DNA of 64,000 nt from positions 40-64,039 of the forward strand of contig JAZQFD010000038.1 of the NCBI GenBank assembly GCA_045539335.1, in the 5' to 3' direction. Both the position numbers and the translations under genes were made by a program. This DNA comes from Eubacteriales bacterium. Lineage in GTDB: Bacteria; Bacillota; Clostridia; Oscillospirales; QAKW01. Within the stretch, counting starts at the first letter, position 1, and the number at the start of each line of letters is the position of its first letter. Under the pieces are notes generated by a model that saw only the letters and a list, made by a program, of their open reading frames with translations, did not search any database and was not told the DNA's origin. This document shows positions 7,901 through 49,735 of this stretch, one piece after another.

Positions 7901-8843
7901 CGTCGGCAAATGCCATGGGAGCACGGGCACGATCGGTGTTGTAGTGGTCATAACCGAGAGTGTTGCGATAGAAGCTGTTGGCAGTGCCGGCAGTTTCCAC
8001 ATCTGCAGCAGACTGAGTAGACACACGATAGAGTGCGGTATAGAGATAACCGGTTGCACCGGCATTGTAGTAAGAATAGCGCAGGTCACCGGCATTATAA
8101 CTGTTCTTAAACTCGATGGTCGCATCGGCTTTACCTGCCATACCTGCGGCAAAGTAGATACCGCTGCAGACCAGACCTAAGTTATAGCAGTTATAGAACT
8201 TACAGCCTGCACCGGTGCTTCCTGAAATACTGGAAGCACAACCGCTGGAACGGCTACCGCCGATGGTGGTGGAAGCAACCCAGCAGTTGATGAACGAAGT
8301 ATTGGCGGAGTAACCGCTGATGGCAGCAGCAAAGAAACCACCGGCTACCAGACCGCTGGCGATACCCACGTTCTTAAAGGTGGCTCCGCTACTGTTGCCA
8401 AACAGACCGGAGGATTGAACGCCATAGACAAACAGATTGGTGATGACAAAGCCATTTCCGTCGAAAGTGCCGGAGAAGGTGCTCTTCGTCTTCACGCTGA
8501 CAATGCCGATCCCTTCAAAGGGAGCGGTGCCCATGTCGATATCGGCCATCTGATAGAAGGTGTAGCCCGCAAAGGTTTTAGCCTCAAAGTTTACAAGATC
8601 AGCCAGCTTATTCATACCGGCACGGTCGGTGATCTTGTAGGCCTTGGCATCGTCTAACAGGCCGTTCTTGATATCCGGCAATGCGGACGCATCATACAGA
8701 CCGGTCTCCGACACGATCTCGCCGTTAACCACATCCGTCGTGGCTGCGCCGGCAGGCAGCGCAAAGCAAGTCAGCAGAGAGACCAGCATCATGAGCGCAC
8801 ACAACGCGGATAATGCACGAGTCTTCTTTTTGGTGAACATCAT
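1983..8843 (-). CDS. Giant secreted multidomain protein: four beta-helix (GLUG-like) modules, cohesin-like module, dockerin-like module, C-terminal SGNH/GDSL hydrolase
   Basis: 2286-aa ORF with signal peptide MMFTKKKTRALSALCALMMLVSLLTCFALPAGA. Four copies of F/L-x-G-x-F/L-D/N-G-x-G-F/H-x-I/V/F-x-N occur at about aa 123, 478, 910 and 1346. See the sub-features for the C-terminal modules. GGAGGA RBS is present. Confidence 0.85.
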   Translation of the reverse strand: MMFTKKKTRALSALCALMMLVSLLTCFALPAGAATTDVVNGEIVSETGLYDASALPDIKNGLLDDAKAYKITDRAGMNKLADLVNFEAKTFAGYTFYQMADIDMGTAPFEGIGIVSVKTKSTFSGTFDGNGFVITNLFVYGVQSSGLFGNSSGATFKNVGIASGLVAGGFFAAAISGYSANTSFINCWVASTTIGGSRSSGCASSISGSTGAGCKFYNCYNLGLVCSGIYFAAGMAGKADATIEFKNSYNAGDLRYSYYNAGATGYLYTALYRVSTQSAADVETAGTANSFYRNTLGYDHYNTDRARAPMAFADGTVAAELNAGATADTDVNTLGAVDGYTVAYANVDGYDYPVLTYSKNGEVAVRRLPHTSANINGDSAAWMGASDVYARFLPSYNGGYINVGTVTVDSADDLYLLGLIWQGWNNPGSDYDITKVDITADIDMKDVTLPNIPRDANGVPYCFPLGGTSNQTSQNYGFANVVLEGNGHTIYNWNVYSPNNGDVGNSGLVGQINGGTVRNINLVGAKVTRWHDINDYSTREEGKRDVSVGLLVGAAYGSATVMNCTVSGTVYYMNSVNETVEKSTVGGLIGNAQMPAFNISDSWCDANVVMADGSTFKAGPVGYVRGTAAVAMERITNVMYAATEKPSVLNANMDLALANSMVKVSGSGEFAYLLTQMGKGTYTLTKDGHVAPGTASQVPAPFRTIMAIRGEEAAELSSIYYVPGSKVTAPDYEGFVMDRSTLPAGTDETNTFVMPGKEVVVQYNNTVVNLLPVNNVSEKLQKYDLDLFVDSDPAKVAIADAKDLVDSYGPLEGQPSADLAIINDEILDLVKLANNLDLQLVNTYPNYVPYSQRDLYEQFGKTTDYAIGTKDDWFEAINEGRDDETFAGITLHLVDSIDLEYAEIMPLPILEGTLNGHGHAFENLNLAVTTNGAPVGMISVLLGTVRDVGVASGAVNVFYNVDLDDYGVAALIGHAGPSAKVLQAWNAADVSVVSLKAPAYENPVAGLVGYADAGAVLDSCYNVGTIFGGDLVSDLVNGEATVYNSFGAGTLLCTYGMSGYVVGGYEKGGAANGLKNVYGVGDKLMSKDAAFAGKILEEDAYYTGEVGYLINQNYVRTDLVERNWFTMKDGLLALADNTDPNTLDEQKAVQLRKVAVALNDGTTEYLYVAGNAETVLDILFVSGYVLKDDSKDLASLSGDVLTVKPVTDADYTRVINMTATVNPLDYTELTENLFYFLLKDSAHFENAEAIDALVEKVMNAEYTTQAAVDADAKALADLMVYVKDVTKLPAIGEAFLYEDAPGYTINNGDDLEYLAVLGMYLPAEQTVYLNADINLSGVNFAGIQDMVASFDGLGHTVANFVADHSFFMNYAGASLKNVNFENAQVADAAVLVNATAGDVTIDGISVLNSTGVAALVGTATGKLTVKNSEAVDYTVNANATTGLLIGNAGDAAVVINNVGVFGALGNAVAAVATLGTGTVTASNVFTGNNKMAALFNGTVAVTNAKTYGNNGYTSVDAMNTALVDATAKWNMNGKTGYPALVLAGKQEKHTITFEKDGNAVATGYTDINGNLYQPDTTILNGYWDVKGDITNVIFTEDTTVVAMVLGNITVNPVGVAKPGDFVKVEVGFDNNPGLKGATFNVNLDFDKFSVIDVEGTGLFRYFMGYNTGAAAPIAPFKVIVANPTVVTANDAAFVLTLKVKDTVGFGNYPDAVTISTMDVIDENKNVTAYADGKCAIVVEGDDFLWGDVNKSNSVLSDDAVLVMQDTVGLATPTMTQPAAGELDGKAGLTVVDAQMILWHLAHPGSILKPVGSKNSTSHLQNAGVAFSVKAGETVWFGPTAASQADMLVFTGATSGADTIGVAGVTEVSSFGGNYKIYSYTAPEAGTVMVNASANYADRFLISLGQKMTTEDYYAYWSKQDGINLYDGVLDHTSETVDWKGAITSSVSYNLTHAINVTEGDVLTIGPASTAQVVLGYAFDASGKAVELINAVNMTEGESFAKGLKVYSYKVPAGVESVRVNVPASMIGKYLVMKNKVFGVADYTAQTGISNAAVADALFNKAGLFAGDSINHGLYSHDTMATQTQPGGWALRVQRDTGLAATNAGTSGWYFCNATTDKYDSIHKLLDKYTANDYQYVLLQGGTNDASKISGIGTITDSFDPATFDQSTFTGALEYTIYKAIKLYGDNAAIGFMSTYKLKADTTKHAQMYAAAEEVCEKWGIAYLDLYNNEDLNNALNMSDIGTIYEKNTKDGTHANANGYELITPYVIEYMRDMVPCSAEVLNAVLG
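1986..2666 (-). other. SGNH/GDSL hydrolase domain of the giant protein (aa ~2060-2286)
   Basis: Ordered blocks are FAGDSINHG (block I Ser), LLQGGTNDA (block III) and DGTHANANGY (block V Asp-x-x-His). Confidence 0.7.
3438..3614 (-). other. Dockerin-like module of the giant protein (aa ~1744-1802)
   Basis: Two Ca-loop/helix segments, GDVNKSNSVLSDDAVLVMQ and GELDGKAGLTVVDAQMILWHL. The reading frame was checked against the DNA at 3600-3602 (Val1748). Confidence 0.55.
3618..4028 (-). other. Cohesin-like module of the giant protein (aa ~1606-1742)
   Basis: ITVNPVGVAKPGDFVKVEVGFDNNPGLKGATFNVNLDFDKFSVIDVEG... fits the cohesin N-terminal strand pattern (v.v..v.a.pGd.v.v.v......l.g..f.l.yD...l). Confidence 0.55.
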
Positions 8844-8932
8844 ACAGTTCCTCCTTCAATAGGGTTTTATAACTGGAGCGTTTACCTCGAAATTTATGAT
8901 AAAAATCGATATAGACGCTATTATATAGATAT

Positions 8933-8941
8933 ATTATAGCA
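8933..8941 (-). promoter_or_regulatory. Possible extended -10 element (TGcTATAAT) upstream of the giant gene
   Basis: Minus-strand TGCTATAAT sits about 90 nt upstream of the start codon in an AT-rich spacer. The -35 is weak (TTTCAA). Confidence 0.35.
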
Positions 8942-9010
8942 CACCGCTTTTTACATTGAAACTATCTTATGTTGTTTTTTTTGCACGATATGTGAAATAT
9001 TTCGATTTTT

Positions 9011-9988
9011 TCATTTAAAGCAAAAAGAGGTGACGGAGCGGAAGGGTTCCCCTGCCTTCAGGGTTGCAGAGGGGAACTGAGGCTGATTGGGAGAGTCGGG
9101 ATAGAATTGAGTTTCCAAGCAAAACCCATGACGCTTTTCATAAACCGGCTCCAAAAAGTTGCCCGAATAGAGCTGTACGCCGGGCAGATCAGTCCAGCAT
9201 TCCATTTTGATGCCGGTGGCGGGAGAGACGGCCTCTGCCGCCTTGCGGAAGCCGGTGCCTCGCACCGCAAAGGTATGGTCATAACCGCCGCCAATGAGCA
9301 GCTGCTCCTCTTTTTGGTCAATTTCTGCTCCGATCGCCTTGGGCGTATTAAAATCAAAGGGAGTGCCGGCCACAGGGCGCAGCTGCCCCAAGGGGATCAG
9401 CACATCATTTACCGGCACAAAGGCATCGGCTTCGATGGCGAGAAGATGGTTTTCCACCGAGCCGTTTCCCACACCGTTGAGATTAAAATAACTATGATTG
9501 GTGGGATTAAAGACGGTATCCCGATCCGAGCAGGCTTCATAAGTAATGGAAAGGGTGTTGTGTTCCACCCCAAAGGTCACCGAGACCTCCAGCCTTCCGG
9601 GATAGCCCTCTTCTCCGTCTGCCAAGGTATGGCAAAGGCGCAATCGGTTTTCCTGCAGGTCGGCTATCGCCCACATTTTATGGCTGAGCCCCACCTTTCC
9701 CCCATGAAGATGCCCTCGGCCTTTTTCATTACAACCCACATCATAAAGAGTGCCGTTTAAAACGAACCGACCGCCGTTAATGCGATTGGCATAGCGGCCC
9801 ACGGTGGCACCTAAATATCCACTCTTCGTCTGATAATCCTCCAAGGTGGGATGCCCCAATGCAACCTCTATGCCTTTATAGCGCACCGCTTGAACGGTGG
9901 CACCGTATGTAAGAACAGAAACTTCCAGATCGCCGTTGGTAATGGTGATTTTTTCAGCTGTGCCGAAGGGTTCTTTTCGAATACTCAT
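9011..9988 (-). CDS. galM: Aldose 1-epimerase (galactose mutarotase)
   Basis: Mutarotase-like sequence ([20 protein letters not shown]..., GRYANRI, HLHGG, NHSYFNL). The ATG at 9988 overlaps the ung stop (ATGA) and has a TGGAG RBS. The ORF-track start at 10000 is a TTG extension. Confidence 0.85.
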
Positions 9989-10641
9989 GTTAAACTCCAA
10001 TCGATAGGTTGATTTAAAAATTCATTAACTTTTTTGAAATGTCCGCAGCCGAAAAAGCCGCTATAGGCCGAAAGAGGACTTGGGTGCGCCGCCTCCAGCA
10101 CCAAATGGGCAGGATTGGTGATCCGTTCCTTTTTAGCTCGGGCATGGCTGCCCCAAAGCAAAAAGACCATGGGCTCCTGCCGCTGATTCAGCAAATCGAT
10201 GATCCGATCGGTAAAAAGCTCCCAACCCTTACCCCGATGGGAGGCGGGGGCGGAATCCCGCACGGTCAGTACGGTGTTCAGCAACAACACCCCTTGCTCT
10301 GCCCACCGGCTCAGATCCCCATGGTCGGGGATTTCAAAGCCTAATTCCGCCTGCAATTCTTTATAAATGTTCTTTAAAGACGGCGGCGGGACCACTCCTT
10401 TTTGCACCGAAAAGCAAAGGCCATGGGCCTGCCCCGGCTGATGATAAGGATCCTGCCCCAAAATCACCACTCGTACCTTTTCATAGGGGGTTTTCTTCAG
10501 GGCGTTAAAAATATCATACATGGAAGGATACACCGTGTGTTGGCGATATTCTCCCTTAAGAAATTCCCGCAATTCTTTATAGTAGGGTGCTTCAAACTGA
10601 TCCGCCAGCAGCGCATCCCAACTATTGCCCAATTGCACCAT
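9985..10641 (-). CDS. ung: Uracil-DNA glycosylase, family 1
   Basis: Motifs VILGQDPYH...[10 protein letters not shown] and the C-terminal HPSPLSA leucine-loop region. GAGGTG RBS is present. Confidence 0.92.
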
Positions 10642-10650
10642 TTTTTCACC

Positions 10651-11031
10651 TCATTCCCATTTTTCGCATAGCCTGCGGATTCCTCGGCATACAAACCGAA
10701 TGGGCACTCCCAAAAGAAACCACAAGCAGCTATACGGCAAGCAGATCTGCCCCATAAAATGAAAGGGCTTTTTGGAATAATCCCACACATTCTGCTTTAA
10801 ACATATATTGAAGATAAAACCAAAAACCAGCTCAATGCCGGTGATGACCGCCGCCGTTTTGCAGCAGATCCAGCGAGCTCCTTTTTTCCCGCAAAGGGGA
10901 TAGAGCAACAGCCCCGCCACACCCCCTGCCAGCGCCATGCTCCAATGGGTTCTCCCCCGCCAGAGCAGCTCCAAAAGAGGGTAGCCCACAAAGCCCACAG
11001 TAAAGACTGCCATTTTTTCACTTTTTTTCAT
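10651..11031 (-). CDS. Small polytopic membrane protein (CmpB / 'putative ABC-transporter type IV'-like, DUF1113-like)
   Basis: Four hydrophobic segments and a VWDYSKKPFHFMGQICLPYSCLWF block typical of that family. The ATG at 11031 has an AGAGGTG RBS. The track start at 11061 is TTG. Confidence 0.6.
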   Translation of the reverse strand: MKKSEKMAVFTVGFVGYPLLELLWRGRTHWSMALAGGVAGLLLYPLCGKKGARWICCKTAAVITGIELVFGFIFNICLKQNVWDYSKKPFHFMGQICLPYSCLWFLLGVPIRFVCRGIRRLCEKWE

Positions 11032-11072
11032 TTTGAACACCTCTTGCTTTAGGGTGTTCAAAATTCATAGAA

Positions 11073-11408
11073 TTAGCCGCCTATTTTGGTGCGATCCACC
11101 CAGACAATACAGGCGATATAGCCCAAGATCGTCCATCCCAGCAGCAAATTAACCAGCAAAAAGGTCTTTCTCTTTTTCATCGCCTTGCGAAAAGCAAAAT
11201 AAGACGGTAGTGTATAGATGGGGAAAAAGACCATGGACGCCACCATCACCACCAAATAGGCCGCCGGAGGGGTCATGCCGGTAAAGCCGGTATTCAGGCT
11301 GAAAAAGGCCACCATCGCCGCAATCATGGCGGTGGAAAAGCAAAAGGCCCAAAGGATCTTCCAAAACAGATAGATCGGATTTTCTTTTCGGGGCACCGGA
11401 TACTCCAT
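11073..11408 (-). CDS. Superinfection-immunity-like small membrane protein (Imm_superinfect-type C-terminus)
   Basis: 111 aa with three TM segments. C-terminal IYTLPSYFAFRKAMKKRKTFLLVNLLLGWTILGYIACIVWV matches the NlllGWT..G...a.vW pattern. Confidence 0.55.
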   Translation of the reverse strand: MEYPVPRKENPIYLFWKILWAFCFSTAMIAAMVAFFSLNTGFTGMTPPAAYLVVMVASMVFFPIYTLPSYFAFRKAMKKRKTFLLVNLLLGWTILGYIACIVWVDRTKIGG

Positions 11409-12736: not shown

Positions 12737-12772
12737 AGAGCCTCCAAGGAGTTTTTCCTTGGAGGCTTCTTT
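12737..12772. terminator. Bidirectional terminator between the small ORF (+) and EEP lipoprotein P1 (-)
   Basis: 12-bp stem AGCCTCCAAGGA/TCCTTGGAGGCT flanked by an A-run and a T-run. Confidence 0.75.
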
Positions 12773-14148
12773 TATCGATACATGAAATAGGGACCGTTTT
12801 CGCCGTAATCATAGGGCTCACGCCAGTATTGAGAATAATCCGGCGTGGTGCCGATCCGCAAGCGAACCAAAACCGCCCAGTGATCCGAAATCATACCCTT
12901 GGCGATCCCCTCTTCCGGATAGTCATAGAGGGTATAGTCCATGCCATAATAATCCACGCAAACATTGGGATGGGGCTTCATGGTAATATGGTCGATCTGG
13001 GTTTTGCCGCCCAGCTCCGATTCGGGAGGAATCTGACCTTTATTAAAATGAGAGCCGTTGTAGGAGCCGTTCAAGGGGCCCAGCTCGCAAAGACCATCGT
13101 CATTAAGATACATAGCCATATCCCGCAGGTCAATGATCTTATCCCATTCGATCATGGTATTATAATCCTCTCCTCGATAGGTGGCATTATAGTCGCCGCC
13201 CACAAAGGCATAGGCATCGGGCTCCATCTTTTCAAACCGCTGATAGAACAGCTGCATGGCGCCTACGCAAGCCTCCAGATTATCGGAGCCATGATAGGTA
13301 TGCAGACAGTGGATATATACGATCTCGCCGGTTTCCTTCACCTGCAGCTTTGCCCAAGTGGAAACATCCGCACCGGCCTGACCACTGAAGCCGGGGCCCT
13401 CCTGCCAGGGGGTGGGAGAGATCCAGAAATGGCCGGTATCCAGGGTCTTAAAGGTGGCGTTTTTCCAAATGACCGGCTCACTCATCAAATGGCCGTCCAA
13501 GGTGGAGTGGCGATCATGATACACATAATCATAAACCTGCTCCAGATAGGGATCTTCATTAAAGAAGTTTTTAAAGGTGATCTTGGCTTCGTTAAAGAAA
13601 ATGACATCGGGGTCTTGTTTCTTGATCATGGTCTTCAGGCGGCGAAGACGATTGTAAATGTTATTATTGGTGCCGTCCCCCTTTTCGCCATACGCCGCAT
13701 AGCCCGCATGCTTTACATTCTGAGAGATCATGGTCAAGGCAGTACCGCTGGACTCTTTTTCCATCTTGACCCATTCTTTTTCCCCATCCTCGGGGTTCTT
13801 GGTATCCTCAGGATCTTTGGTATCCTCAGGCTCCTTAGAGTCTTCAGGGTCTTTGGTATCCTCCGGGTCTTTCGTGTCCTCAGGATCTTTGGTATCCTCG
13901 GGCTCTTTGGAGTCTTCAGGATCTTTGGTATCCTCGGGCTCTTTGGAGTCTTCAGGGTCTTTGGTATCCTCCGGGTCTTTGGTGTCCTCAGGATTCTTGG
14001 TGGGCTCCTTCTTATCGTCGCCGGACTCCTCTTCCAGCACATCGGCAACGCCGAAGCCTTCCTCCTCTTCCTTCCCCTTACAGCTTGCCAGCATGGTAAG
14101 GCTCATGGTCAATATCAGTAATAAACAAATCCATCTGAATTTCTTCAT
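12772..14148 (-). CDS. EEP-family (endonuclease/exonuclease/phosphatase fold) lipoprotein, paralog P1, with (PEDTKD)n acidic spacer
   Basis: Lipobox MKKFRWICLLLILTMSLTMLASC. EEP blocks are SQNVKH, FFNEA, CLHT, GGDYN, QIDH and SDHW. The ATG at 14148 has a GAGGAT RBS. The upstream extension to 14187 runs through the P2 terminator. Confidence 0.85.
   Translation of the reverse strand: MKKFRWICLLLILTMSLTMLASCKGKEEEEGFGVADVLEEESGDDKKEPTKNPEDTKDPEDTKDPEDSKEPEDTKDPEDSKEPEDTKDPEDTKDPEDTKDPEDSKEPEDTKDPEDTKNPEDGEKEWVKMEKESSGTALTMISQNVKHAGYAAYGEKGDGTNNNIYNRLRRLKTMIKKQDPDVIFFNEAKITFKNFFNEDPYLEQVYDYVYHDRHSTLDGHLMSEPVIWKNATFKTLDTGHFWISPTPWQEGPGFSGQAGADVSTWAKLQVKETGEIVYIHCLHTYHGSDNLEACVGAMQLFYQRFEKMEPDAYAFVGGDYNATYRGEDYNTMIEWDKIIDLRDMAMYLNDDGLCELGPLNGSYNGSHFNKGQIPPESELGGKTQIDHITMKPHPNVCVDYYGMDYTLYDYPEEGIAKGMISDHWAVLVRLRIGTTPDYSQYWREPYDYGENGPYFMYR
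13793..14008 (-). repeat. In-frame 18-bp tandem repeat (~12 units) encoding (P-E-D-T/S-K-D/E)n in P1
   Basis: The unit GGATCTTTGGTATCCTCA and close variants are read directly on the plus strand. Confidence 0.9.
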
Positions 14149-14166
14149 CGGTATATCCTCATCTTT

Positions 14167-14201
14167 TGAAAAAAGCCTGCCGATCACATCAAGCAGGCTT
14201 T
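14167..14201 (-). terminator. Terminator after P2
   Basis: AGCCTGC/GCAGGCT stem followed by T6 on the minus strand. Confidence 0.6.
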
Positions 14202-14211
14202 TTATTCTTAA

Positions 14212-15648
14212 TTATCCAAGTACCTTGGCAGGCACATTGCTTTCACGCCAATACAAAGGACCATCACCATAATCATGGGGCATCATGTACTGGGAATAAT
14301 CCACATTGGTATCAATGCGGACATCCACGATCAACGCATAGTGGTCGGAGATCCAGCCTTCTTGGGCACCCTCTTCGGGGCAAGCATAACGACCATAATC
14401 ATTTCCATAATAATCAATGGTCATTTTGGGATTGTATTTTGCCATCAGATGGTCGATCTGCCTACTGCCGCCGGGATTGGCTACATTGGCCACATTGTTA
14501 TCAAAAGCGGAGCCGATAAAGGAACCGTTCATTTCGCCCAGTTCGCACAGATCATGCTCCCAAAGGTTCAAAGCCACGTCACGCAGGTCAACGATCAAGC
14601 TCCAATCCATCATGGTATAGTACTTCTCGGTACGGTACTGCACATTATAGTCGCCGCCGGCAAAAAGATATTCATCCGGCTTCATCTTCTCTACGATCCG
14701 CAGATACTGCTGGAAAGACTTGATCTGGGACACCTGACCGGTATGGGCATAGTGAACACAATAAGCGGTAAAGACCGAGCCGGTCTGCTTATCCTTTACC
14801 TTTACCCAGCAGTTTACATCGCCATAATCGGCATCGGCATCATAAGACTTGGAGGGACGGTCGGGGGTTTCCGAGGTCCACATATAACCCTTCTCCAATT
14901 CCTTATACTTGGAGGTCTTCCAAAGGATGGGCTCGGTCTGACGACCGCCATCCATGCTGGGGCTGGGGTTTCTCCAGGTCCAGCAAATATCATAAACCTG
15001 AGAGAAATAAGGGTTATTTTCAAAGAAATCAATGGTGGCCGCACGGGCTTCCTGCTCCATGATGATATCGGGATCGTACTTCTTCACCATGGTGGTAAAA
15101 CGGTTCAGACGGTTGATCTTAGAGATGCTGGTACCGTCACCCACCACGCCGTAGCTACCGCCGGAGTGCTTAATGTTCTGAGAAAGGAAGCGGATCTTGG
15201 TGCCGCTGCCGTCATCCTTTACCGGCTCTGCCGTTTTAGGATCAAACTGCTCCAACTCATCATCCTCAAAGATCGGCTCATCGGAAGGTTCCTCCTCAGA
15301 AGGATCATCGGAGGGGTCCTCATTGGAAGGATCGTCGGAAGGATTCTTGGAGGGATCCTCATTGGAAGGATCGTCCTTATCATCCGGTTCATCGGCAGGG
15401 TCATCCTTATCGTCGGGCTCGTCGGTAGGGTCATCCTTATCGTCGGGCTCGTCGGTAGGATCATCCTTATCGTCAGGCTCGTCGACAGGGTCATCCTTAT
15501 CGTCGGGCTCTTTGGTATCATCGTCTTCTACCTCGACCCACTCGCCGGCGGTTGCGCCCTCTTCTTCATCAACGGTTTTGCAACTTGCCAGCATGGTAAC
15601 GCTCATAATCACAACCAACAGCAAGCACAGCCATCTCAAATGCTTCAT
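14212..15648 (-). CDS. EEP-family lipoprotein, paralog P2, with (DDKDDPxDEP)n acidic spacer
   Basis: Lipobox MKHLRWLCLLLVVIMSVTMLASC. EEP blocks are SQNIKH, MEQEA, CVHY, GGDYN, QIDH and SDHY. The ATG at 15648 has a GGAGGA RBS. Confidence 0.85.
   Translation of the reverse strand: MKHLRWLCLLLVVIMSVTMLASCKTVDEEEGATAGEWVEVEDDDTKEPDDKDDPVDEPDDKDDPTDEPDDKDDPTDEPDDKDDPADEPDDKDDPSNEDPSKNPSDDPSNEDPSDDPSEEEPSDEPIFEDDELEQFDPKTAEPVKDDGSGTKIRFLSQNIKHSGGSYGVVGDGTSISKINRLNRFTTMVKKYDPDIIMEQEARAATIDFFENNPYFSQVYDICWTWRNPSPSMDGGRQTEPILWKTSKYKELEKGYMWTSETPDRPSKSYDADADYGDVNCWVKVKDKQTGSVFTAYCVHYAHTGQVSQIKSFQQYLRIVEKMKPDEYLFAGGDYNVQYRTEKYYTMMDWSLIVDLRDVALNLWEHDLCELGEMNGSFIGSAFDNNVANVANPGGSRQIDHLMAKYNPKMTIDYYGNDYGRYACPEEGAQEGWISDHYALIVDVRIDTNVDYSQYMMPHDYGDGPLYWRESNVPAKVLG
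15370..15510 (-). repeat. In-frame 30-bp tandem repeat (~4.7 units) in P2
   Basis: The unit GTCATCCTTATCGTCGGGCTCGTCGGTAGG is repeated head-to-tail. Confidence 0.9.
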
Positions 15649-15738
15649 AATCAGGTCCTCCTTGCGGAAAAGATATATATACACATTAATAATAACATAT
15701 TAATTGATAAATGCAAACCTTTTTTGCATTTTTTTAAC

Positions 15739-15770
15739 AAAAAAAATCCCCAAAGAGATTCTTTGGGGAT
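15739..15770 (-). terminator. Terminator after P3
   Basis: TCCCCAAAG/CTTTGGGGA stem followed by T8 on the minus strand. Confidence 0.75.
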
Positions 15771-15780
15771 TTTAAAGACA

Positions 15781-17130
15781 TCATCGCCAGTAAATAGGAT
15801 TATTGCCGTAGTCATGCTCGGTTTGATAATAGGTATAGTCGGCATCGGTATCCAGCCGCAACTTTACCACCAAACCATAGTGGTCGGCAATATAGCCGCT
15901 TTGAATATCATCGGCAGGGTAGGTATAGTGGGTATAGTCAAAGCCATAATAGTCGATGGCCATATGGGGGTTGGGCTTTGCCATCAGATAGTCGATCTGA
16001 TGCTTATTTCCGGGGGTGGGATCTTCTTCATTTTTATCGAAACGACCGGCGGTGCCGCTGCCGTACATGCCACCCAATTCGGTCAGTCCGTCGGTATACA
16101 TATTCATGGCCACATCCCGCAGATCCATCAGCTTATCCCATTCCATCATCATCATATAATCATCGCTGCGATAGAGCACATTCCAGTCGCCGCCGATAAA
16201 GGCATAGGTGCCATCCTTCAGATCCGCAACGGTATTGCTCAGCTGCTCTTGGGATTTGAGCTGGCCGGTTTCACCAAAGCCGAAATGGTTGGAATAGGCA
16301 TAGAACTCCACGCCGGTGGCTTTATCCTTCAGCTGCACCCAAGTAATGATACGACCGTATGCCGATTCATCATCATAAGAGGTAGAGGGCATTTTGGGGG
16401 TTTCGGAAAGCCAGAAAAAGCCACTGTTTAGCTTGGTATATTTCTTGGTTTTCCAAAGAAGGGGGGTACACTCATCGCCGCCGGGTACATCGCCGGGGCC
16501 TCGCTTTTGCCAGATGACGGTATAATCCGCAAACAGCTCACTTTCAAAGGCTTTGGTCCAGCCGATACGCCCTTCTTGCCCTAAGATCACATCGGGATCA
16601 TGGGCATCCACCATGGCACGGAAACGGCGAATACGGTTATAAATGTTGTTGCCGGTGCCGTCGTTTTTCTCACCTAAACTGACGCCGGCGTGCTTTAAGT
16701 TCTGAACCAAAATAGTTACCGGAGTGCCGCTGCTTTCTTTTTCCACAGGGCCGGGCACAGAAGGCTCATCCTCCGAAGGCTCATCCTTAGAGGGTTCGTC
16801 AGAAGGCTCCTCATTGGAGGGCTCATCCTTCGAAGGCTCGTCCTTGGAGGGTTCGTCTTCCGAAGGCTCATCCTCAGTGGGATCCTTATCGGAGGGCGCC
16901 TCAGAGGGCTCCTCATCGGAAGGTTCGTCCTTCGAAGGCTCATCCTCAGTGGGATCCTCATCGGAGGGCTCCTCTTCAGACGGCTTTTTATCGCCGTTGT
17001 CTTTATCAAAATTACCGTCCAGGGTCTCGGTGAAGCCCAATTCTTCCTCCTCCGAGCTCTTGCAGCTTGCCAGCATGGTGACACTCATCACCAAAATCAG
17101 CAGCAAACTAATCCATCTTAAATGCTTCAT
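15781..17130 (-). CDS. EEP-family lipoprotein, paralog P3, with (EPSxD/E)n acidic spacer
   Basis: Lipobox MKHLRWISLLLILVMSVTMLASC. EEP blocks are VQNLKH, GQEG, SNHF, GGDWN, QIDY and ADHY. The start at 17130 lies only 16 nt after the P4 stop. Confidence 0.85.
   Translation of the reverse strand: MKHLRWISLLLILVMSVTMLASCKSSEEEELGFTETLDGNFDKDNGDKKPSEEEPSDEDPTEDEPSKDEPSDEEPSEAPSDKDPTEDEPSEDEPSKDEPSKDEPSNEEPSDEPSKDEPSEDEPSVPGPVEKESSGTPVTILVQNLKHAGVSLGEKNDGTGNNIYNRIRRFRAMVDAHDPDVILGQEGRIGWTKAFESELFADYTVIWQKRGPGDVPGGDECTPLLWKTKKYTKLNSGFFWLSETPKMPSTSYDDESAYGRIITWVQLKDKATGVEFYAYSNHFGFGETGQLKSQEQLSNTVADLKDGTYAFIGGDWNVLYRSDDYMMMMEWDKLMDLRDVAMNMYTDGLTELGGMYGSGTAGRFDKNEEDPTPGNKHQIDYLMAKPNPHMAIDYYGFDYTHYTYPADDIQSGYIADHYGLVVKLRLDTDADYTYYQTEHDYGNNPIYWR
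16761..16985 (-). repeat. Imperfect in-frame short tandem repeats encoding the Pro/Ser/Asp/Glu spacer of P3
   Basis: Reiterated GAAGGCTCATCCT/GAGGGTTCGTC-type units. Confidence 0.7.
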
Positions 17131-17146
17131 CTTCTTTTCTTCCTTT

Positions 17147-18460
17147 TTATGTTTCAAAATACATGGGGCCATCCCCATAATCATAAGGCTCTTCCTGATA
17201 TTGGGAATAATCGGCATCGGTGGCGATCCGCACCTTGACCACCAAGCCGAAATGGTCGGAAATATGCCCCGGCTTTACGTCGTCGGCGGGGTAATCATAG
17301 GTGGTGTAGTCAAAGCCGTAATAATCCACCGCCACATGGGGGTCGGGCTTCATCATCACATAGTCGATTTGACTCCCTTCCTTTTTGACCTCCGGCATCA
17401 AATGCACATCCTCGGTGGCGGCATCATAATTCACATTGGTGCCGGTATACATTCCGCCCAATTCCGTCAGCCCATCATCATACATATAAAGGGCCACATC
17501 CCGAAGATCCACCACCTTCTCCCAGTCCATCATGCTTTCATAGGCAAATTTGCGGTAATGGGAATTGAAATCTCCGCCAAAAAAGGTATAGATTCCTTCT
17601 TCCATTTCATCCGCCACCTGATGATATTGCAGCATGGAGGGAACCACAATATCGGCATCATTTCCCGGTCGAAAATGGGTAGAGGCGCAATAGAGCTTTT
17701 CGCCGCTGGCTTTTTCCTGCAAAATTGCCCAGCTGACGATGGTTTCTCCACCATCATAGCTGGAGGGGACATGCGGAGTTTTACTCAGCCAGAAAAAGCC
17801 TTGATCAACCGCCTTAAAACGGGCCGTTTTCCAAAGAAGCGGCTCTGCCTGCACTCCGTTTTCATACCGATAGTGGGTGGTGTAGGTCTCCATAAAATAC
17901 CGATCCTGCTCCGTCAAAAAGGAGATAGCGCCCTTGCGGGCTTCGCTATAAAAAATAATATCGGGATCATGGGTCTGCACCAAGGATTTAAAGCGGCGCA
18001 TTCGGTTATAGATATCGTTGCCGGTGCCATCCCCTTTAACGCCCATTCGAGTGCCGGAATGGCGCACATTCTGGGAAAGAAAGGTGATGGCCACTCCGCT
18101 ATCCTCTTTTTCCACCGGCTTTGGCTTTTGCTCCGGTTCCGAAGGCGGTTCCTCTTGGGGAGGCTCCTCATCAGGCTTCTCCGAGGGGAGTTGCTCCTCC
18201 TTGGGTTCTTCCGAAGCATCCGGCGTTTCTTGGGGCGGTTGCTCCACATCCGGTTCTTTATTTGTTGGGTCGGAAGAGGGCTCTTTTGGAGAATCCTCTT
18301 CCTTCTCCGGCTCTTTTTCCGGCATTTTTTCTTCTTCCTGCTCCAGCACATCGGCAATGCCGAGATTCTCCTCTTCGGGGGCTTTGCAGCCTTCCGAAAG
18401 AGTCAGACACAGAGCCAAAAGTAACAAAAAACTAATCCATCTTAATTGTTTCATTCTCAT
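17147..18460 (-). CDS. EEP-family secreted protein, paralog P4 (atypical lipobox, non-repetitive Pro/Glu spacer)
   Basis: Signal peptide MRMKQLRWISFLLLLALCLTLSEGC has Glu at -2 of the lipobox. EEP blocks are SQNVRH, YSEA, STHF, GGDFN, QIDY and SDHF. Confidence 0.8.
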   Translation of the reverse strand: MRMKQLRWISFLLLLALCLTLSEGCKAPEEENLGIADVLEQEEEKMPEKEPEKEEDSPKEPSSDPTNKEPDVEQPPQETPDASEEPKEEQLPSEKPDEEPPQEEPPSEPEQKPKPVEKEDSGVAITFLSQNVRHSGTRMGVKGDGTGNDIYNRMRRFKSLVQTHDPDIIFYSEARKGAISFLTEQDRYFMETYTTHYRYENGVQAEPLLWKTARFKAVDQGFFWLSKTPHVPSSYDGGETIVSWAILQEKASGEKLYCASTHFRPGNDADIVVPSMLQYHQVADEMEEGIYTFFGGDFNSHYRKFAYESMMDWEKVVDLRDVALYMYDDGLTELGGMYTGTNVNYDAATEDVHLMPEVKKEGSQIDYVMMKPDPHVAVDYYGFDYTTYDYPADDVKPGHISDHFGLVVKVRIATDADYSQYQEEPYDYGDGPMYFET

Positions 18461-18463
18461 TTA

Positions 18464-18495
18464 CCAAAAAGGCGCCTTCACAAGGGAAGACGCCT
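18464..18495 (-). terminator. Terminator after P5
   Basis: AGGCGTCTTC/GAAGGCGCCT stem (one mismatch) followed by T5 on the minus strand. Confidence 0.6.
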
Positions 18496-18502
18496 GATTT
18501 TA

Positions 18503-19909
18503 TTAACTGTTGTAGTACTTCATTTCAAAGTTGAAATAGCGAGGCTTATCGCCGAATTCATAGGGTCCTTGCTGATATTGAGAATAATCGGCATCGGTAT
18601 TGATGCGAACCTTCACCACCAAGCCCCAGTGATCGGAAATATGGCCGTGGGCAATGCCTTCGGCTTTATAATCATAGACCGTATAGTCAAAGCCATAATG
18701 ATCCACCGCCACATGAGCGTTAGGCTTCATCATCACATAGTCGATCTGATGAGAGGTGCCAATGGCATCGGGATCGGATACACTGGGTTCCGGCTCATTT
18801 CTACCAAAGGCAAGGTTATGGCCGCTGCCCATGCCGCCGAAGGTGGTTAGGTTATGGTCGCCCATCCAAAGGGCCACATCCCGCAGATCTACGATCTTAT
18901 CCCATTCCAGCATCTGAATGTATGTATCGCTGCGATAATAGCAGTTATAGTCGCCGCCTACGAAAGCATAAGCGTCCTTTTCAATCTTTTCAAAACGGTC
19001 ATAGTAAAGCTGCATAGCACCGATATCCGCCTCGGGATTGCCGGGGTCGGTATGGAGGCAGTAGGCATAGATGATCTCACCGCTCTTCTTCACCTTCAGC
19101 TTTACCCAGGTAGAAACGTCGGCACCCTTCTGACCGCCAAAGCCCGGACCCTCTTGATTGGGGGTGGGAGAGATCCAGAAATGGCCTCTTTCCAACTCCT
19201 TGAACATGGAGGTTTTCCAAAGGACCGGCTCACTCATCAAGTGACCGGCCAAGGTAGAATGGCGATCCTGCCACACAAAATCATAAGTCTGGCTCATATA
19301 AGGATCTTCGTTGAAAAACCGCTTAGCGGTTTCTTTTGCTTCATTATAGAAAATGATATCGGGATCATTGACCGTCACCATGGTTTTGAACCGACGCAAA
19401 CGGTTATAAATATTCATATCAGTGCCGTCGCCTTTTTCCCCATAAGGAGTATAGCCGGCGTGCTTTACGTTTTGAGACACAAAGGTAATGGCGGTGCCGC
19501 TGTTTTCTTTTTCTACCGGCTTAACCTCTACCGGCTTCTCATCATCCCCCTGCTCAGGATCCTTATCGGGCTCTGTGCCCTCATCAGGCTCCTTGGTATC
19601 CTCAGGGTCTTTGGTATCCTCAGGATCCTTGGTGTCCTCGGGATCCTTGGTATCGTCGGGATCTTTGGTATCGTCGGGATCCTTGGTGTCATCAGGATCT
19701 TTGGTATCGTCGGGATCCTTGGTTTCATCAGGATCTTCAGAATCGTCGGGATCGTCTTTGGAGGAGTTATCATCCTCATCCTTATTAAAGTTATTATCCA
19801 GCGTCTCGGTAAAGCCCAGGTCTTCTTCCTCGGGGCCCTTGCAGCTTGCCAGCATGGTGATGCTCATCATTACAATCAGCAAAAGGCTGATCCATCTAAG
19901 ATGCTTCAT
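18503..19909 (-). CDS. EEP-family lipoprotein, paralog P5, with (DPD/EDTK)n acidic spacer; closest to P1
   Basis: Lipobox MKHLRWISLLLIVMMSITMLASC. EEP blocks are SQNVKH, FYNEA, CLHT, GGDYN, QIDY and SDHW. AGGAGA RBS is present. Confidence 0.85.
   Translation of the reverse strand: MKHLRWISLLLIVMMSITMLASCKGPEEEDLGFTETLDNNFNKDEDDNSSKDDPDDSEDPDETKDPDDTKDPDDTKDPDDTKDPDDTKDPEDTKDPEDTKDPEDTKEPDEGTEPDKDPEQGDDEKPVEVKPVEKENSGTAITFVSQNVKHAGYTPYGEKGDGTDMNIYNRLRRFKTMVTVNDPDIIFYNEAKETAKRFFNEDPYMSQTYDFVWQDRHSTLAGHLMSEPVLWKTSMFKELERGHFWISPTPNQEGPGFGGQKGADVSTWVKLKVKKSGEIIYAYCLHTDPGNPEADIGAMQLYYDRFEKIEKDAYAFVGGDYNCYYRSDTYIQMLEWDKIVDLRDVALWMGDHNLTTFGGMGSGHNLAFGRNEPEPSVSDPDAIGTSHQIDYVMMKPNAHVAVDHYGFDYTVYDYKAEGIAHGHISDHWGLVVKVRINTDADYSQYQQGPYEFGDKPRYFNFEMKYYNS
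19586..19756 (-). repeat. In-frame 18-bp tandem repeat (~9 units) in P5
   Basis: The unit GGATCCTTGGTATCGTCG and variants. Confidence 0.9.
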
Positions 19910-19935
19910 AGTATTTCTCCTTTTTTGCAGGTTCT

Positions 19936-19972
19936 AGAAAAAAGACCCGTGAAAAGATCTATTCACGGGTCT
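19936..19972 (-). terminator. Terminator after P6
   Basis: 11-bp stem AGACCCGTGAA/TTCACGGGTCT followed by T6 on the minus strand. Confidence 0.8.
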
Positions 19973-19985
19973 GATTTTAATTGGA

Positions 19986-21425
19986 TTACTCAGCCATATC
20001 CATATTGAACCAAACGTCTCTACCCTTTGCCTTATAGTCATAAGGATCACGGTAGTACTGAGAATAATCAGGCTCGGTATCGATACGAACCTTTACCACC
20101 AACCCCCAGTGGTCAGAGATCTGGCCCTTTTGAACCTTATCTTCCGGTGCATCGTATACTTTATAATCAAAACCATAATGGTCGATGGCCATATGAGCCA
20201 TGGGCTTTGCCATTACAAAGTCGATCTGAGAGCCCTTGCCCACCACATCGGGATTTACAACCTTGGGAAAGCCCTTGGGATCGGGATCATAATTATAGTT
20301 ATGTCCGCTGGCCATGCCGCCCAAAGTGCAAAGACCATCGTCATTAAAGTACATAGCGGCATCACGCAGGTCGCAAACCAAGCTCCAATCCTTCATCATA
20401 TCGCTATAGCGAGTAGACTTGGAGTTCATGTCACGATAGTAAGCGTTGAAATCGCCGCCCAGGAAGTAATACTCATTGTCGGCCGTCTTCTTAATACGAT
20501 CATAGTAGATCTGCATGGTCTTGGGGCAAACCTCCTCACCGGAGGGGCTGGTATGTACCGAAGCGGCATAGAAGACAACGCCGGTCTTCTTATCCTGCAG
20601 CTTTGCCCAAGTATTGATATCGCCGTATGCTGCATCAGAGTCCCAAGACTTACCGGGAGCGTTCTGCTTATCGTTCAGCCAGATAAAGCCGCTTTCCAGT
20701 TCCTTAAAGCGGGAGGTCTTATAAAGCAGAGGCTCTGCCTGGTCACCGCCCAGAATGGAGTTGCCGGATTCGAACCAACGATATTTCCAAAGCAGCTTAT
20801 AGGTTTGAGCAAAATAAGGATCCTCCGACAGAAAGGCAATGTTGCCGGAACGAGCCTCATTATAGAAGATGATATCGGGATCATTGGCCTTTACCATGGA
20901 TCTGAAACGACGCATCTTATTATACACGCCCAAACCGGTACCATCGCCGGCAGCGCCCACAGAACTACCGTCATGACGGATGTTCTGCGCCATAAAGGTG
21001 ATGGCGGTACCGCTGCTTTCCTTCTCCATCTTTACCCATTCTTTTTCTTCATCGGGCTCCTTGGAGGGCTCATCAGAAGGATCATCCGAGGGATCATCGG
21101 AAGGATCATCGGAAGGGTCATCCGAGGGATCGTCAGCAGGGTCATCGGAAGGATCGTCCGAGGGCTCATCCGAAGGCTCATCGGAAGGGTCATCCGAGGG
21201 ATCATCCGAAGGATCGTCTGAAGGATCATCGGAATCGTCGGGCTCACGGGTCTCGTCGCCTTCATAAGGGACGGTAACGCTATCCGGCTTATCTTCAACC
21301 TCAACAACGTCAACATTACCGGCACGATCCGGATATGTTGCACCGCCTGCGCAGGATGCCAGCATGGTGCTGAGCATCGCCACAACAACGATTAAGGTTG
21401 CTGCTTTCATCCATTTCATTTTCAT
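19986..21425 (-). CDS. EEP-family lipoprotein, paralog P6, with (DDPS)n acidic spacer
   Basis: Lipobox MKMKWMKAATLIVVVAMLSTMLASC. EEP blocks are AQNIRH, FYNEA, SVHT, GGDFN, QIDF and SDHW. GGAGGA RBS is present. Confidence 0.85.
   Translation of the reverse strand: MKMKWMKAATLIVVVAMLSTMLASCAGGATYPDRAGNVDVVEVEDKPDSVTVPYEGDETREPDDSDDPSDDPSDDPSDDPSDEPSDEPSDDPSDDPADDPSDDPSDDPSDDPSDDPSDEPSKEPDEEKEWVKMEKESSGTAITFMAQNIRHDGSSVGAAGDGTGLGVYNKMRRFRSMVKANDPDIIFYNEARSGNIAFLSEDPYFAQTYKLLWKYRWFESGNSILGGDQAEPLLYKTSRFKELESGFIWLNDKQNAPGKSWDSDAAYGDINTWAKLQDKKTGVVFYAASVHTSPSGEEVCPKTMQIYYDRIKKTADNEYYFLGGDFNAYYRDMNSKSTRYSDMMKDWSLVCDLRDAAMYFNDDGLCTLGGMASGHNYNYDPDPKGFPKVVNPDVVGKGSQIDFVMAKPMAHMAIDHYGFDYKVYDAPEDKVQKGQISDHWGLVVKVRIDTEPDYSQYYRDPYDYKAKGRDVWFNMDMAE
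21064..21240 (-). repeat. In-frame 12-bp tandem repeat (~15 units) in P6
   Basis: The unit GGATCATCCGAG and variants. Confidence 0.9.
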
Positions 21426-21644
21426 GGGGGTTCCTCCTTCCGCTTTTGAGCAGAATAATACATAGAGATATTTTTAGATATTAATATTATAGCATCTCTT
21501 CGTCCATCTTTTAATAGCATAATGTTGTTTTTATATTACACGGTGTTGCCAATTCCCCTCTTTTCAAAAAATCCACAATTTGCTTGAATAAATGGTTTTA
21601 TTGATATAAAATAAGATTAAATCACTTTTTTGGAGGCTCTTTTT

Positions 21645-37481: not shown

Positions 37482-37522
37482 AAAAGAGCGACCAAGGGCA
37501 GCCCTTGGTCGCTCTTTTTTTA
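37482..37522. terminator. Bidirectional terminator between mgtC-like (+) and dockerin-EEP D1 (-)
   Basis: 14-bp stem AGAGCGACCAAGGG/CCCTTGGTCGCTCT flanked by A4 and T7. Confidence 0.85.
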
Positions 37523-38875: not shown

Positions 38876-38897
38876 CACGATAATCCTTTCTATAAAC

Positions 38898-38928
38898 CAT
38901 TACTGCCTGCAAAAAGCAGGCAGTAATG
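38898..38928 (-). terminator. Hairpin between D2 and D1 (weak terminator)
   Basis: 13-bp stem CATTACTGCCTGC/GCAGGCAGTAATG. The minus-strand downstream tract is only GTTTAT. Confidence 0.4.
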
Positions 38929-38936
38929 AAAAAAGA

Positions 38937-40316: not shown

Positions 40317-40335
40317 GGGATCCTCCACTTTCTTC

Positions 40336-44056: not shown

Positions 44057-44098
44057 TATGCCACCACTAAGCATATTAAGTGATGGCATACTTTTTTT
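44057..44098. terminator. Hairpin between the ABC permease gene and the flavoprotein gene
   Basis: 12-bp stem TATGCCACCACT/AGTGATGGCATA (one mismatch). The good T7 tract is on the plus strand and only TTTCCC on the minus strand, so the orientation is ambiguous. Confidence 0.4.
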
Positions 44099-47724: not shown

Positions 47725-47870
47725 GCTCTGCCTCCTCCTTTTATTTCAACAGTTAAAATGATCCCACCCTTTTACAGGCCGATCTTTTCCGCCGCTTTAT
47801 TGAACTCTCTTAAGCCCTAAAACGCTCAAAGCCGCCCTGCTTTGGCAGCAGTGCGGGTTTCAGTCTTTTA

Positions 47871-47912
47871 GAAAAAATGACTAAGGCGGGGCGCGTTTGG
47901 GCCCCGCCTTAG
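47871..47912 (-). terminator. Intra-operon terminator/attenuator after the substrate-binding-protein gene
   Basis: 12-bp GC-rich stem CTAAGGCGGGGC/GCCCCGCCTTAG followed on the minus strand by TCATTTTTTC. Confidence 0.75.
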
Positions 47913-47923
47913 CTTAGAATGGA

Positions 47924-49162: not shown

Positions 49163-49735
49163 TTACCCTCTGAATTTCAAGGAATGATCGGTCATCTCAT
49201 CAATGATGGCCAAGGATTCCACCCGAATGCCTTCGGCCCGCAGACCGTCTCCCCCGCCCTGAAAGCCTTTTTCAATGGCGGTGGCACAGCCCACAACGGT
49301 GGCACCGGCCTGCTTCACAATATCGATCAGCCCACGCAGGGCGCAACCGTTGGCAAGAAAATCATCAATGATCAGCACCCGATCCTCGGGCTGCAGATAT
49401 TCCTTACTGACCACCACATGATTGTCCACATTATGAGTATAAGAATGGACCTTTGCGGTATAAACCTCGGCGTCCACATTACTGGTCTTTTTCTTTTTTC
49501 CAAAGACCAACGGCACGCCCATGGCTGCTGCCGCCGCAAAGGCAAGAGCAATGCCGGAGGCCTCCACCGTCATCACTTTATTGGGGCGATCCTCCTCGAA
49601 TAAGCGAGCGATTTCTTCGCCCATCTCCATCATAAAAGGAGCGTCGATCTGATGATTCAGAAAATTGCCGACCTTCAATACATGACCGGGAAGAACTTGT
49701 CCGTCTTTTAAAATTCGCTCCTCTAACGCTCTCAT
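49163..49735 (-). CDS. xpt: Xanthine phosphoribosyltransferase
   Basis: MRALEERILKDGQVLPGHVLKVGNFLNHQID... N-terminus and the PRPP loop VLIIDDFLANG. Confidence 0.9.
   Translation of the reverse strand: MRALEERILKDGQVLPGHVLKVGNFLNHQIDAPFMMEMGEEIARLFEEDRPNKVMTVEASGIALAFAAAAAMGVPLVFGKKKKTSNVDAEVYTAKVHSYTHNVDNHVVVSKEYLQPEDRVLIIDDFLANGCALRGLIDIVKQAGATVVGCATAIEKGFQGGGDGLRAEGIRVESLAIIDEMTDHSLKFRG

Follow-up and report, generated by a model that had tools for sequence, protein, structure and literature searches.

The window analysed here comprises 64,000 nucleotides of an Eubacteriales bacterium (assembly GCA_045539335.1, contig JAZQFD010000038.1, positions 40 to 64,039) and harbors an array of six consecutive minus-strand genes, P1 to P6, which we interpret, with a probability of about 45%, as encoding surface-displayed, Mg2+-dependent phosphoesterases of the EEP (endonuclease/exonuclease/phosphatase) superfamily that fall into a BT3783-like subgroup and may act on phosphorylated glycans. 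BT3783 is a Mg-dependent mannose-6-phosphatase that acts on phosphorylated yeast-mannan N-glycans and belongs to the yeast-mannan polysaccharide utilization locus (PUL) of Bacteroides thetaiotaomicron (PMC4978465). The six open reading frames (ORFs) of the array fill positions 12772-21425 exactly, are all paralogous and can be aligned over their full length, and each encodes a signal peptide, an acidic linker and an EEP domain, which agrees with the three-part protein that an earlier note on this DNA had described. The start of each gene was assigned to the ATG before the MKxxRW signal peptide, and a GGAGG-like ribosome-binding site lies ahead of each of them. Together with three dockerin-bearing EEP genes at 37520-41676, the window contains nine EEP domains, the number that had been counted before (Table 1).

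The catalytic domains of P1 to P6 comprise 326-352 aa, and in the alignment the blocks QN.[KR]H, xE[AG], a conserved His, GGDxN and QID are present in all six. The last block departs from the motif series proposed by the earlier note, which had SDH[WYF] in every copy: P3 has ADH here, and the other five have SDH. Eight residues, namely N23, E66, H162, D196, N198, D266, D302, and H303 in P5-domain numbering, are invariant in an alignment of 46 sequences that includes the three dockerin-bearing paralogs, and the same eight catalytic residues are present in each of the six array proteins. Since this is the full set of metal-binding and acid/base residues of EEP enzymes, all six look catalytically competent. 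The Pfam family PF03372 (Exo_endo_phos), which had been expected on the C-terminal ~330 aa, matches all six proteins, although weakly (18.9-33.2 bits at a gathering cutoff of 24.5 bits): P1, P3, and P5 reach the cutoff (27.7-33.2 bits) and P2, P4, and P6 stay below it (18.9-23.5 bits). Apart from this family, Pfam gave only a PT repeat. As Pfam alone is weak, the assignment to the EEP superfamily was based on a profile search against the Protein Data Bank (PDB), an AlphaFold2 (AF2) model and a Foldseek comparison.

A profile of the six proteins found the two BT3783 entries 3MPR (E 2e-18) and 4C1R (E 7e-18) first, followed by 3G6S (BVU_0621) and 3L1W, so that these three proteins span E-values of 2e-18 to 3e-9; the weaker matches were a sphingomyelinase (E 0.018) and TDP2 (E 0.73). 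The model of the P5 domain, computed from the 46-sequence alignment, has a mean pLDDT of 93.8 and a pTM of 0.94. In the Foldseek comparison of this model with the PDB, BT3783 was again best (E 6e-21, target-normalised TM 0.77-0.81, 19-20% identity), followed by BVU_0621, TDP2, 3L1W, CNOT6L, and nocturnin, and BT3783, BVU_0621, and 3L1W together occupy ranks 1-6 and 8. All of the top 50 PDB matches listed are EEP proteins; DNase I, ExoIII, and CdtB are neither among these 50 nor among the PDB profile matches at E<=1. Judged from the P5 model, the fold of P1 to P6 is that of the EEP superfamily, a predicted four-layer alpha/beta sandwich. Alignment, model and Foldseek comparison therefore bear out the proposed EEP fold with a complete Asn/Glu/His/Asp-Asn/Asp/Asp-His set, and the nearest structure is BT3783 and not DNase I or CdtB. 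Among the NCBIfam models, no nuclease model matches P1 to P6 at E<=0.01, and the sphingomyelinase model TIGR03395 matches P2 only, with 15.3 bits against a cutoff of 248. Matches to Mycoplasma LppA, SslE, TonB, and DnaX, all far under their cutoffs, were rejected as spurious low-complexity or signal-peptide matches.

By sequence as well as by structure comparison, BT3783 (3MPR/4C1R) is the closest characterised relative of P1 to P6. A local BLASTP comparison with 195 residues of BT3783 gave 31% identity for P3 (residues 5-199, E 5e-16), 29% for P2, 26% for P6, and 21-24% for P4, P5, and P1. P2 and P3 (29-31% over ~190 aa) have in common with BT3783 a GDG loop after strand 1 and a near-identical FWLSETPxxPSKxxD loop. 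P2 and P3 have the W-L-S-E-T-P-x-x-P-S-K part of this loop in a near-canonical form, P4 has a close and P6 a diverged version (WLNDKQNAPGKS), and in P1 and P5 the loop is replaced by FWISPTPxQEGPG. The FW[ILT]S[EPK]TP subgroup had been regarded as uncharacterised; this does not hold for BT3783, a known mannose-6-phosphatase, but it does for the close relatives of the array, which carry no functional name. A literature search on the PDB entries of the nearest structures found only the BT3783 paper.

As substrate class we tentatively favour phosphorylated carbohydrates over nucleic acids, for four reasons: among close relatives only a glycan phosphatase, BT3783, has been characterised; the non-catalytic loops that are conserved best are common to it and the array; nuclease and sphingomyelinase models fail to match; and the individual conservation of nine paralogs suggests chemically diverse substrates. 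Several points speak against this assignment. The identity to BT3783 is just 19-31%, the array domain is ~70 residues larger with a ~65-aa insert and a ~40-aa tail, and EEP subgroups readily switch their substrate. The array has housekeeping genes as neighbours and lacks any linked gene of the glycoside hydrolase, PUL-like or sugar-transport type. Furthermore, relatives of 318 aa without a signal peptide (~50% identity) lie near RNase T-like and AddAB genes, which would suit a nucleic-acid or small-molecule substrate at least equally well, and a Bmp-type nucleoside ABC transporter and xpt are located a few kb from the dockerin-EEP cluster. Lastly, old paralogs of any kind that are subject to purifying selection would be expected to show the pattern of paralog-specific sites described below, which was seen in two genomes.

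Some of these points lead to an alternative that we regard as rather unlikely, namely that the nine enzymes are surface nucleases or nucleotide phosphodiesterases that digest extracellular DNA or RNA, derived from lysed cells and digesta, for the uptake of nucleotides and nucleosides. DNase I, ExoIII/APE1, and numerous surface nucleases of bacteria have the EEP fold, and two of the Foldseek neighbours that come after BT3783, TDP2 and CNOT6L, act on nucleic-acid ends. The nucleoside transporter (44097-49111) and xpt (49163-49735) near the dockerin-EEP cluster as well as the position of the signal-less short relatives beside RNase T-like and AddAB genes (locus L007) point in the same direction, and a long tether would suit a macromolecule that cannot enter the cell wall. 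However, NCBIfam gave no nuclease match at E<=0.01, and neither the PDB profile matches (E<=1) nor the Foldseek top 50 include DNase I, ExoIII, or CdtB, whereas the best-conserved non-catalytic loops are those of a sugar phosphatase. Moreover, nine specialised and conserved paralogs would exceed the apparent need for DNA digestion. The strong acidity of the tethers and of the catalytic domains, the net charge of which is -8 to -21, is a weak point against nucleases since DNase I is acidic too; net charge and pI were for this reason dropped as a means to discriminate between nuclease and phosphatase.

Very unlikely in our opinion is an activity of the phospholipase C or sphingomyelinase type, directed against head groups of phospho(sphingo)lipids from the host, the diet or plants, or against lipoteichoic-acid-like polymers. 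Bacterial sphingomyelinase C is indeed an EEP enzyme, the profile of the array matches that of L. ivanovii (SmcL, 1ZWX) weakly (E 0.018), P2 has a weak NCBIfam match (E 0.0099), and membrane tethering would put the enzymes close to lipid surfaces. These matches are marginal, however (15 bits vs 248), cover only ~45 residues around GDxN, and have no counterpart in the Foldseek top 50; an acidic tether would in addition keep the enzyme off the cell's own membrane.

The age of the array was addressed by comparison with related loci. A genome scan for array-type loci gave three loci, and the neighbourhoods were examined in L001, L004, L006, and L008. On L004, a 126-kb JGI metagenome contig, ispE and malQ are followed by an array (2726-11380) of six genes encoding 480, 465, 431, 452, 469, and 459 aa, and their catalytic domains pair one-to-one and in collinear order with P6 to P1. 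The orthologous catalytic domains are 70-85% identical, e.g., 72-73% for P6 (first gene of L004), 78-79% for P5 and 84-85% for P4, compared with 40-61% between paralogs. The dN/dS ratios (Nei-Gojobori) of the six ortholog pairs are 0.08-0.16, values that are approximate as dS is saturated (1.1-1.9). L001, a metagenome-assembled genome (MAG) of the Eubacteriales, has four genes, which are P6-, P5-, P4-, and P2-like, between DUF711 and dagK; in L008 malQ is followed by at least three array-type genes before the contig ends, and L006 has a singleton homolog in unrelated surroundings. Collinear orthologs, the identity pattern and purifying selection together argue that the six copies are individually maintained, and on this comparative evidence the array is ancient and under purifying selection. 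As each copy was kept as its own ortholog, the genes seem to encode specialised enzymes and not dosage copies. In accordance with this, sites that are fixed within ortholog pairs and differ among paralog groups (63-65, 122, 131-138, 161-166, 189-197, 263, and 304) flank every catalytic motif, which fits a divergent specificity, with two genomes as a weak indication.

The term six-fold amplification, by which the array had been described, is thus misleading for an old array that is preserved gene for gene in a related genome. That the array is a recent amplification of one undifferentiated enzyme, for dosage or surface variation, might be suggested by the tandem arrangement, the near-identical signal peptides of P2, P3, and P5, and the repetitive, slippage-prone linkers, yet this is refuted by the ortholog/paralog identity pattern: the catalytic domains are mutually only 40-61% identical, each copy has a collinear L004 ortholog, dN/dS is low in every pair, and the likeness at the N-terminus is explained by gene conversion within the first ~44 codons. 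In codons 1-44, which comprise the signal peptide and the head of the linker, P3 and P5 are 82% identical to each other, but only 40% and 35% identical, respectively, to their own L004 orthologs; conversely, the L004 orthologs of P1, P3, and P5 have EDEMGVVDTVVPG in common in this module. Since the N-terminal module follows the genome and the catalytic domain follows orthology, this indicates gene conversion that is restricted to the 5' module and occurs between non-adjacent genes.

The homogenised module carries the signals for surface display. The signal peptides of P2, P3, and P5 are nearly identical in the alignment, as had been noticed before, and the sequence MLASC closes the signal peptide of P1, P2, P3, P5, and P6. 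The same five and all six L004 orthologs match the lipobox pattern G+LPP, so that lipidation at the conserved Cys can be assumed for five of the six copies. A lipobox had been assigned to all six, which does not apply to P4: here it is degenerate (LSEG-C at residues 20-25, with Glu at position -2) and fails the pattern. The orthologs of P4 in L004 and L001 have canonical lipoboxes (TASG-C and LVGG-C), and therefore P4 may be unlipidated in this strain in particular. The linkers are as acidic as described (36-50% Asp+Glu, besides Pro, Ser, Thr, and Lys), but with 94-116 aa they are longer than the 60-100 aa given earlier. At the DNA level they consist of tandem repeats with a period of 12, 15, 18, 30 or 36 (Tandem Repeats Finder).

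From these features the following model can be drawn. P1 to P6 would be exported to the outside of the monoderm Clostridia cell, where five of them would be lipid-anchored at the conserved Cys, and the tether of ~100 residues, an acidic Pro/Ser/Thr repeat, could, if extended, span tens of nm and carry the enzyme through or beyond the cell wall. In the active site Asn and Glu would hold the metal, and the Asp-His pair would activate water for cleavage of the phosphate ester. The substrates would be phosphate esters on extracellular carbohydrates, i.e., phosphorylated glycans or oligosaccharides as for BT3783, with a separate sugar or linkage for each paralog, and glycosidases would gain access to the glycan once its phosphate is removed, or phosphate would be freed. 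Expression would start from two promoters, before P6 and before P2, and internal intrinsic terminators would grade it along each unit.

The last assumption is based on the arrangement of transcription signals (Table 1). Hairpins with T-tracts are present at four of the five internal junctions and at the 3' end of the array, which was recovered by scan, direct reading and RNAfold just as the earlier note had it; the four internal intergenic regions concerned fold with -16 to -35 kcal/mol and have 5-8 T after the stems. The P2/P1 hairpin was missed by the scan because its loop exceeds the limit of 8 nt. No hairpin or other structure was found in the 16-nt gap between P4 and P3, which is indeed the only junction of this kind. 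In L004 hairpins occur at the same four junctions and at the 3' end, and none at the equivalent of P4/P3; as the stems are unrelated in sequence and yet the junctions are alike, it is the position of the hairpins that recurs. L001 has hairpins after the first and the last gene only, and the remaining gaps are 5 and 25 nt long. Between hairpin and ATG only 33 nt are left for P5, 10 nt for P4, and ~20 nt for P1, so that there is no room for a promoter before these genes. The longer upstream regions belong to P6 (204 nt) and P2 (132 nt), and both contain matches to TG-extended -10 promoters with -10 elements that recur in L004. Weak promoter candidates are located inside the upstream coding ends (20002-19974 and 17207-17180). 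The earlier suggestion that six isozymes are expressed independently is hence unsupported. As good promoter matches are found only before P6 and P2, and as L001 has tight gaps without hairpins, the genes probably form two transcription units, P6-P5-P4-P3 and P2-P1, in which the internal hairpins are leaky terminators or stabilise 3' ends.

A block of ~70 nt before the first gene is conserved in the window (21486-21560, minus strand), L004 (~2610-2680), and L001 (~8000-8090), and more weakly in L008. In the first three it has the order GGCAACACsGTGT...AAAAACAACATTATGCTATTAA...ATGCTATAAT, and besides the near-palindrome CAACACsGTGT it has ATGCTATTAA and ATGCTATAAT as two TG-extended -10-like elements. 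The block is also present in L001, where malQ is not a neighbour, and could represent an operator with tandem promoters. The near-palindrome has one exact match in the window. Matches with one mismatch occur elsewhere in it, none of them upstream of P2 or of the dockerin cluster, so that a regulon could not be delimited. When the whole window was scanned for Rfam families and tRNAs, nothing was found, hence no riboswitch or leader RNA is detectable.

Close relatives of the array are rare. A word-indexed search of 5.8 billion proteins with P5 as query, in which P5 itself was not among the matches, returned 37 relatives with up to 80% identity, all of metagenome or MAG origin and labelled Clostridia bacterium, and none functionally named. 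HMMER with a profile of the six domains against 1.84 billion cluster representatives gave 5875 matches at E<=1e-3, 1869 at E<=1e-10, and 45 at E<=1e-30, but only ~35 of the matches span the whole domain, and the others mainly cover the N-terminal half that is common with BT3783-like proteins. According to these searches, the array clade, with its 45 clusters at E<=1e-30, is a rare and divergent branch of the EEP superfamily from uncultured Clostridia. In more distant relatives the anchor is of the LPXTG type or consists of three SLH domains, and some of these proteins contain two EEP domains; due to these varied anchors, surface display looks like a family trait. Different from these, the locus L007 (GCA_017482195.1, 2169-8957) encodes P0033, P0034, and P0043, proteins of ~318 aa without signal peptide or linker that are 45-55% identical to P3, in the neighbourhood of an RNase T-like gene, a cohesin protein, a GDSL lipase, another EEP gene and addAB. 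The protein P0022 (426 aa) is 100% identical to the catalytic domain of P4.

The three enzymes of the second tandem cluster in the window belong to the same EEP subgroup and have the same catalytic residues and tandem order as the array, and their identity to the catalytic domain of P5 is 22-27% in the 46-sequence alignment. However, a signal peptide of the signal peptidase (SPase) I type and a type I dockerin replace the lipobox and the acidic tether. The cluster is syntenic in L001, where it lies beside MgtC genes. No paper was found on dockerin-borne EEP enzymes. A cohesin-domain protein of 408 aa (50694-51920, plus strand, Pfam E 1.2e-11) is a possible partner of the dockerin-EEPs and of a secreted protein of 2286 aa (1983-8843, minus strand). 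The latter has no Pfam match at E<=1e-3, and by eye it contains a dockerin-like segment (GDVNKSNSVLSDDAVLVMQ...GELDGKAGLTVVDAQMILW) and a SGNH/GDSL-like C-terminal region. Dockerin-EEPs, cohesin protein and lipoprotein array taken together suggest that one enzyme family is displayed in two ways. Going further, the nine enzymes could constitute a battery dedicated to the removal of phosphate decorations in cohesin-dockerin Clostridia, in which every enzyme would have its own phosphate mono- or diester to remove from extracellular polysaccharides, for example from yeast phosphomannan, phosphorylated starch, or fragments of teichoic acid or capsule; this we consider quite unlikely.

The direct neighbours of the array, encoding uracil-DNA glycosylase, a dagK-type lipid kinase, malQ (GH77), ispE, and DUF711, are housekeeping genes, and a functional interpretation of ispE, DUF711, malQ, and dagK was dropped as the synteny is one by descent. 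The minus-strand genes at 44097-49111 encode a Bmp/PnrA-type lipoprotein, an ABC ATPase and two permeases of the nucleoside-uptake type, and xpt is located at 49163-49735. Another tandem array, at 51950-55350 on the plus strand, consists of four consecutive xylose-isomerase-like TIM-barrel paralogs (PF01261, 273-289 aa each), and a plus-strand ORF of 519 aa (27655-29214) has no Pfam match at E<=1e-3.

Table 1. Positions of the array genes and of further features in the 64,000-nt window.
Feature	Position	Strand	Size	Description	Basis
P1	12772-14148	-	458 aa	last array gene; lipoprotein EEP paralog; closest paralog is P5 (60-61% identity)	ORF, PF03372, alignment
P2	14212-15648	-	478 aa	lipoprotein EEP paralog; own upstream promoter region	ORF, PF03372
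P3	15781-17130	-	449 aa	most BT3783-like lipoprotein EEP paralog; final motif ADH, not SDH	ORF, PF03372 (33.2 bits), alignment
P4	17147-18460	-	437 aa	EEP paralog with degenerate lipobox; 16 nt upstream of P3	ORF, PF03372 (18.9 bits)
P5	18503-19909	-	468 aa	lipoprotein signal, PEDTKD-repeat tether, EEP domain (modelled copy)	ORF, PF03372, AF2 model
P6	19986-21425	-	479 aa	first array gene; lipoprotein signal MLASC, acidic DPSD-repeat tether, EEP domain	ORF, PF03372 (23.5 bits), PT-repeat match
Tether repeats, P1	13786-14001	-		tandem DNA repeats of the acidic tether, period 18/36	Tandem Repeats Finder, linker composition
Tether repeats, P2	15278-15510	-		equivalent repeat array	Tandem Repeats Finder
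Tether repeats, P3	16758-16985	-		equivalent repeat array	Tandem Repeats Finder
Tether repeats, P5	19581-19753	-		equivalent repeat array	Tandem Repeats Finder
Tether repeats, P6	21070-21234	-		equivalent repeat array	Tandem Repeats Finder
Hairpin P6/P5	19943-19972	-	11 bp	followed by TTTTTT; hairpin with unrelated stem at the L004 junction	scan; RNAfold, whole intergenic region -22.5 kcal/mol
Hairpin P5/P4	18470-18495	-	10 bp	followed by TTTTT; present in L004, absent in L001	scan and fold
Hairpin P3/P2	15743-15773	-	14 bp	followed by TTTTTTTT; hairpin also at the L004 junction	scan and fold
Hairpin P2/P1	~14169-14202	-		GCCTGC/GCAGGC, A-U extended, 12-nt loop, followed by TTTTTT	direct reading; RNAfold -17.5 kcal/mol
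Hairpin 3' of P1	12739-12767	both		bidirectional, terminator-like; common with convergent dagK-like gene	scan
Putative array promoter	21486-21548	-		TTAAAA-17-TATAAT with upstream TG, after conserved block with CAACACCGTGT	scan, 10/12 matches
Putative second promoter	15689-15717	-		TTTGCA-17-TATTAT, TG-extended, before P2; TGTTATTAT -10 element also in L004	scan
Dockerin-EEP cluster	37520-41676	-	three genes	second tandem EEP cluster; signal peptide, type I dockerin and EEP domain	ORFs, Pfam Dockerin_1, PF03372

The array does not introduce a new mechanism, but together with the dockerin cluster it provides nine candidate enzymes as a defined assay panel, and it is a case of module-specific concerted evolution. 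BT3783 is the only relative with a known function, and identified substrates would define the activity of a rare EEP branch. Moreover, one phosphoesterase family would appear on lipid tethers and on dockerins in the same cell, and the array can serve as a model for modular evolution, in which catalytic domains are strict orthologs and the signal-peptide/linker module is homogenised by gene conversion. If the nine enzymes did act as a battery against phosphate decorations, they would play the part in a Gram-positive bacterium that BT3783 has in the PULs of Bacteroides, glycan dephosphorylation would be a distinct and conserved step in the foraging of Firmicutes on fibre and starch, and phosphoesterases would join the component catalogue of cellulosomes and amylosome-type complexes.

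In comparison with known systems, the superfamily as well as the surface-display architecture of P1 to P6 are familiar, and the array is a divergent, uncharacterised branch. Surface-held or secreted EEP nucleases such as ExeM/NucH/Xds, the streptococcal SpnA, and MnuA of Mycoplasma have an EEP domain that is anchored by lipid, LPXTG or other means. One publication names MnuA as a lipoprotein nuclease (PMC11729948). The surface-held EEP design of these nucleases, likened here by description, is similar, but the array proteins have neither LTD or OB domains nor an NCBIfam nuclease match. Sphingomyelinase C (L. ivanovii SmcL, 1ZWX) is of the same superfamily, but its match is marginal and confined to the GDxN block, P2 is far under the NCBIfam equivalog cutoff, and the enzyme is not among the top structural neighbours. 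TDP2, CNOT6L, and nocturnin, the next structural neighbours after the BT3783 group (Foldseek E 1e-14 to 6e-17), have the same metal site and His/Asp chemistry and act on terminal phosphoesters; they are, however, eukaryotic and intracellular, only 13-17% identical, and the sequence match to TDP2 is insignificant. BVU_0621 (3G6S) and the Enterococcus faecalis protein 3L1W are near P1 to P6 as well, but both are uncharacterised relatives of BT3783 from structural genomics. BT3783 itself has the EEP fold and the catalytic residues in common with the array, is its best match by sequence and by structure, and is likewise secreted by a gut bacterium. It is smaller, as the array domain is ~70 residues longer, with an insert of ~65 aa that separates GDxN from QID and ~40 aa of C-terminal tail including a conserved DYSQY, and the C-terminal half of the array domain cannot be aligned to it by sequence. 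Furthermore, BT3783 is encoded by a single gene in a Bacteroides PUL, whereas the array, known from its sequence, comprises six genes plus three paralogs in a Gram-positive host, with lipid anchor and acidic tether and without PUL or glycosidase context.

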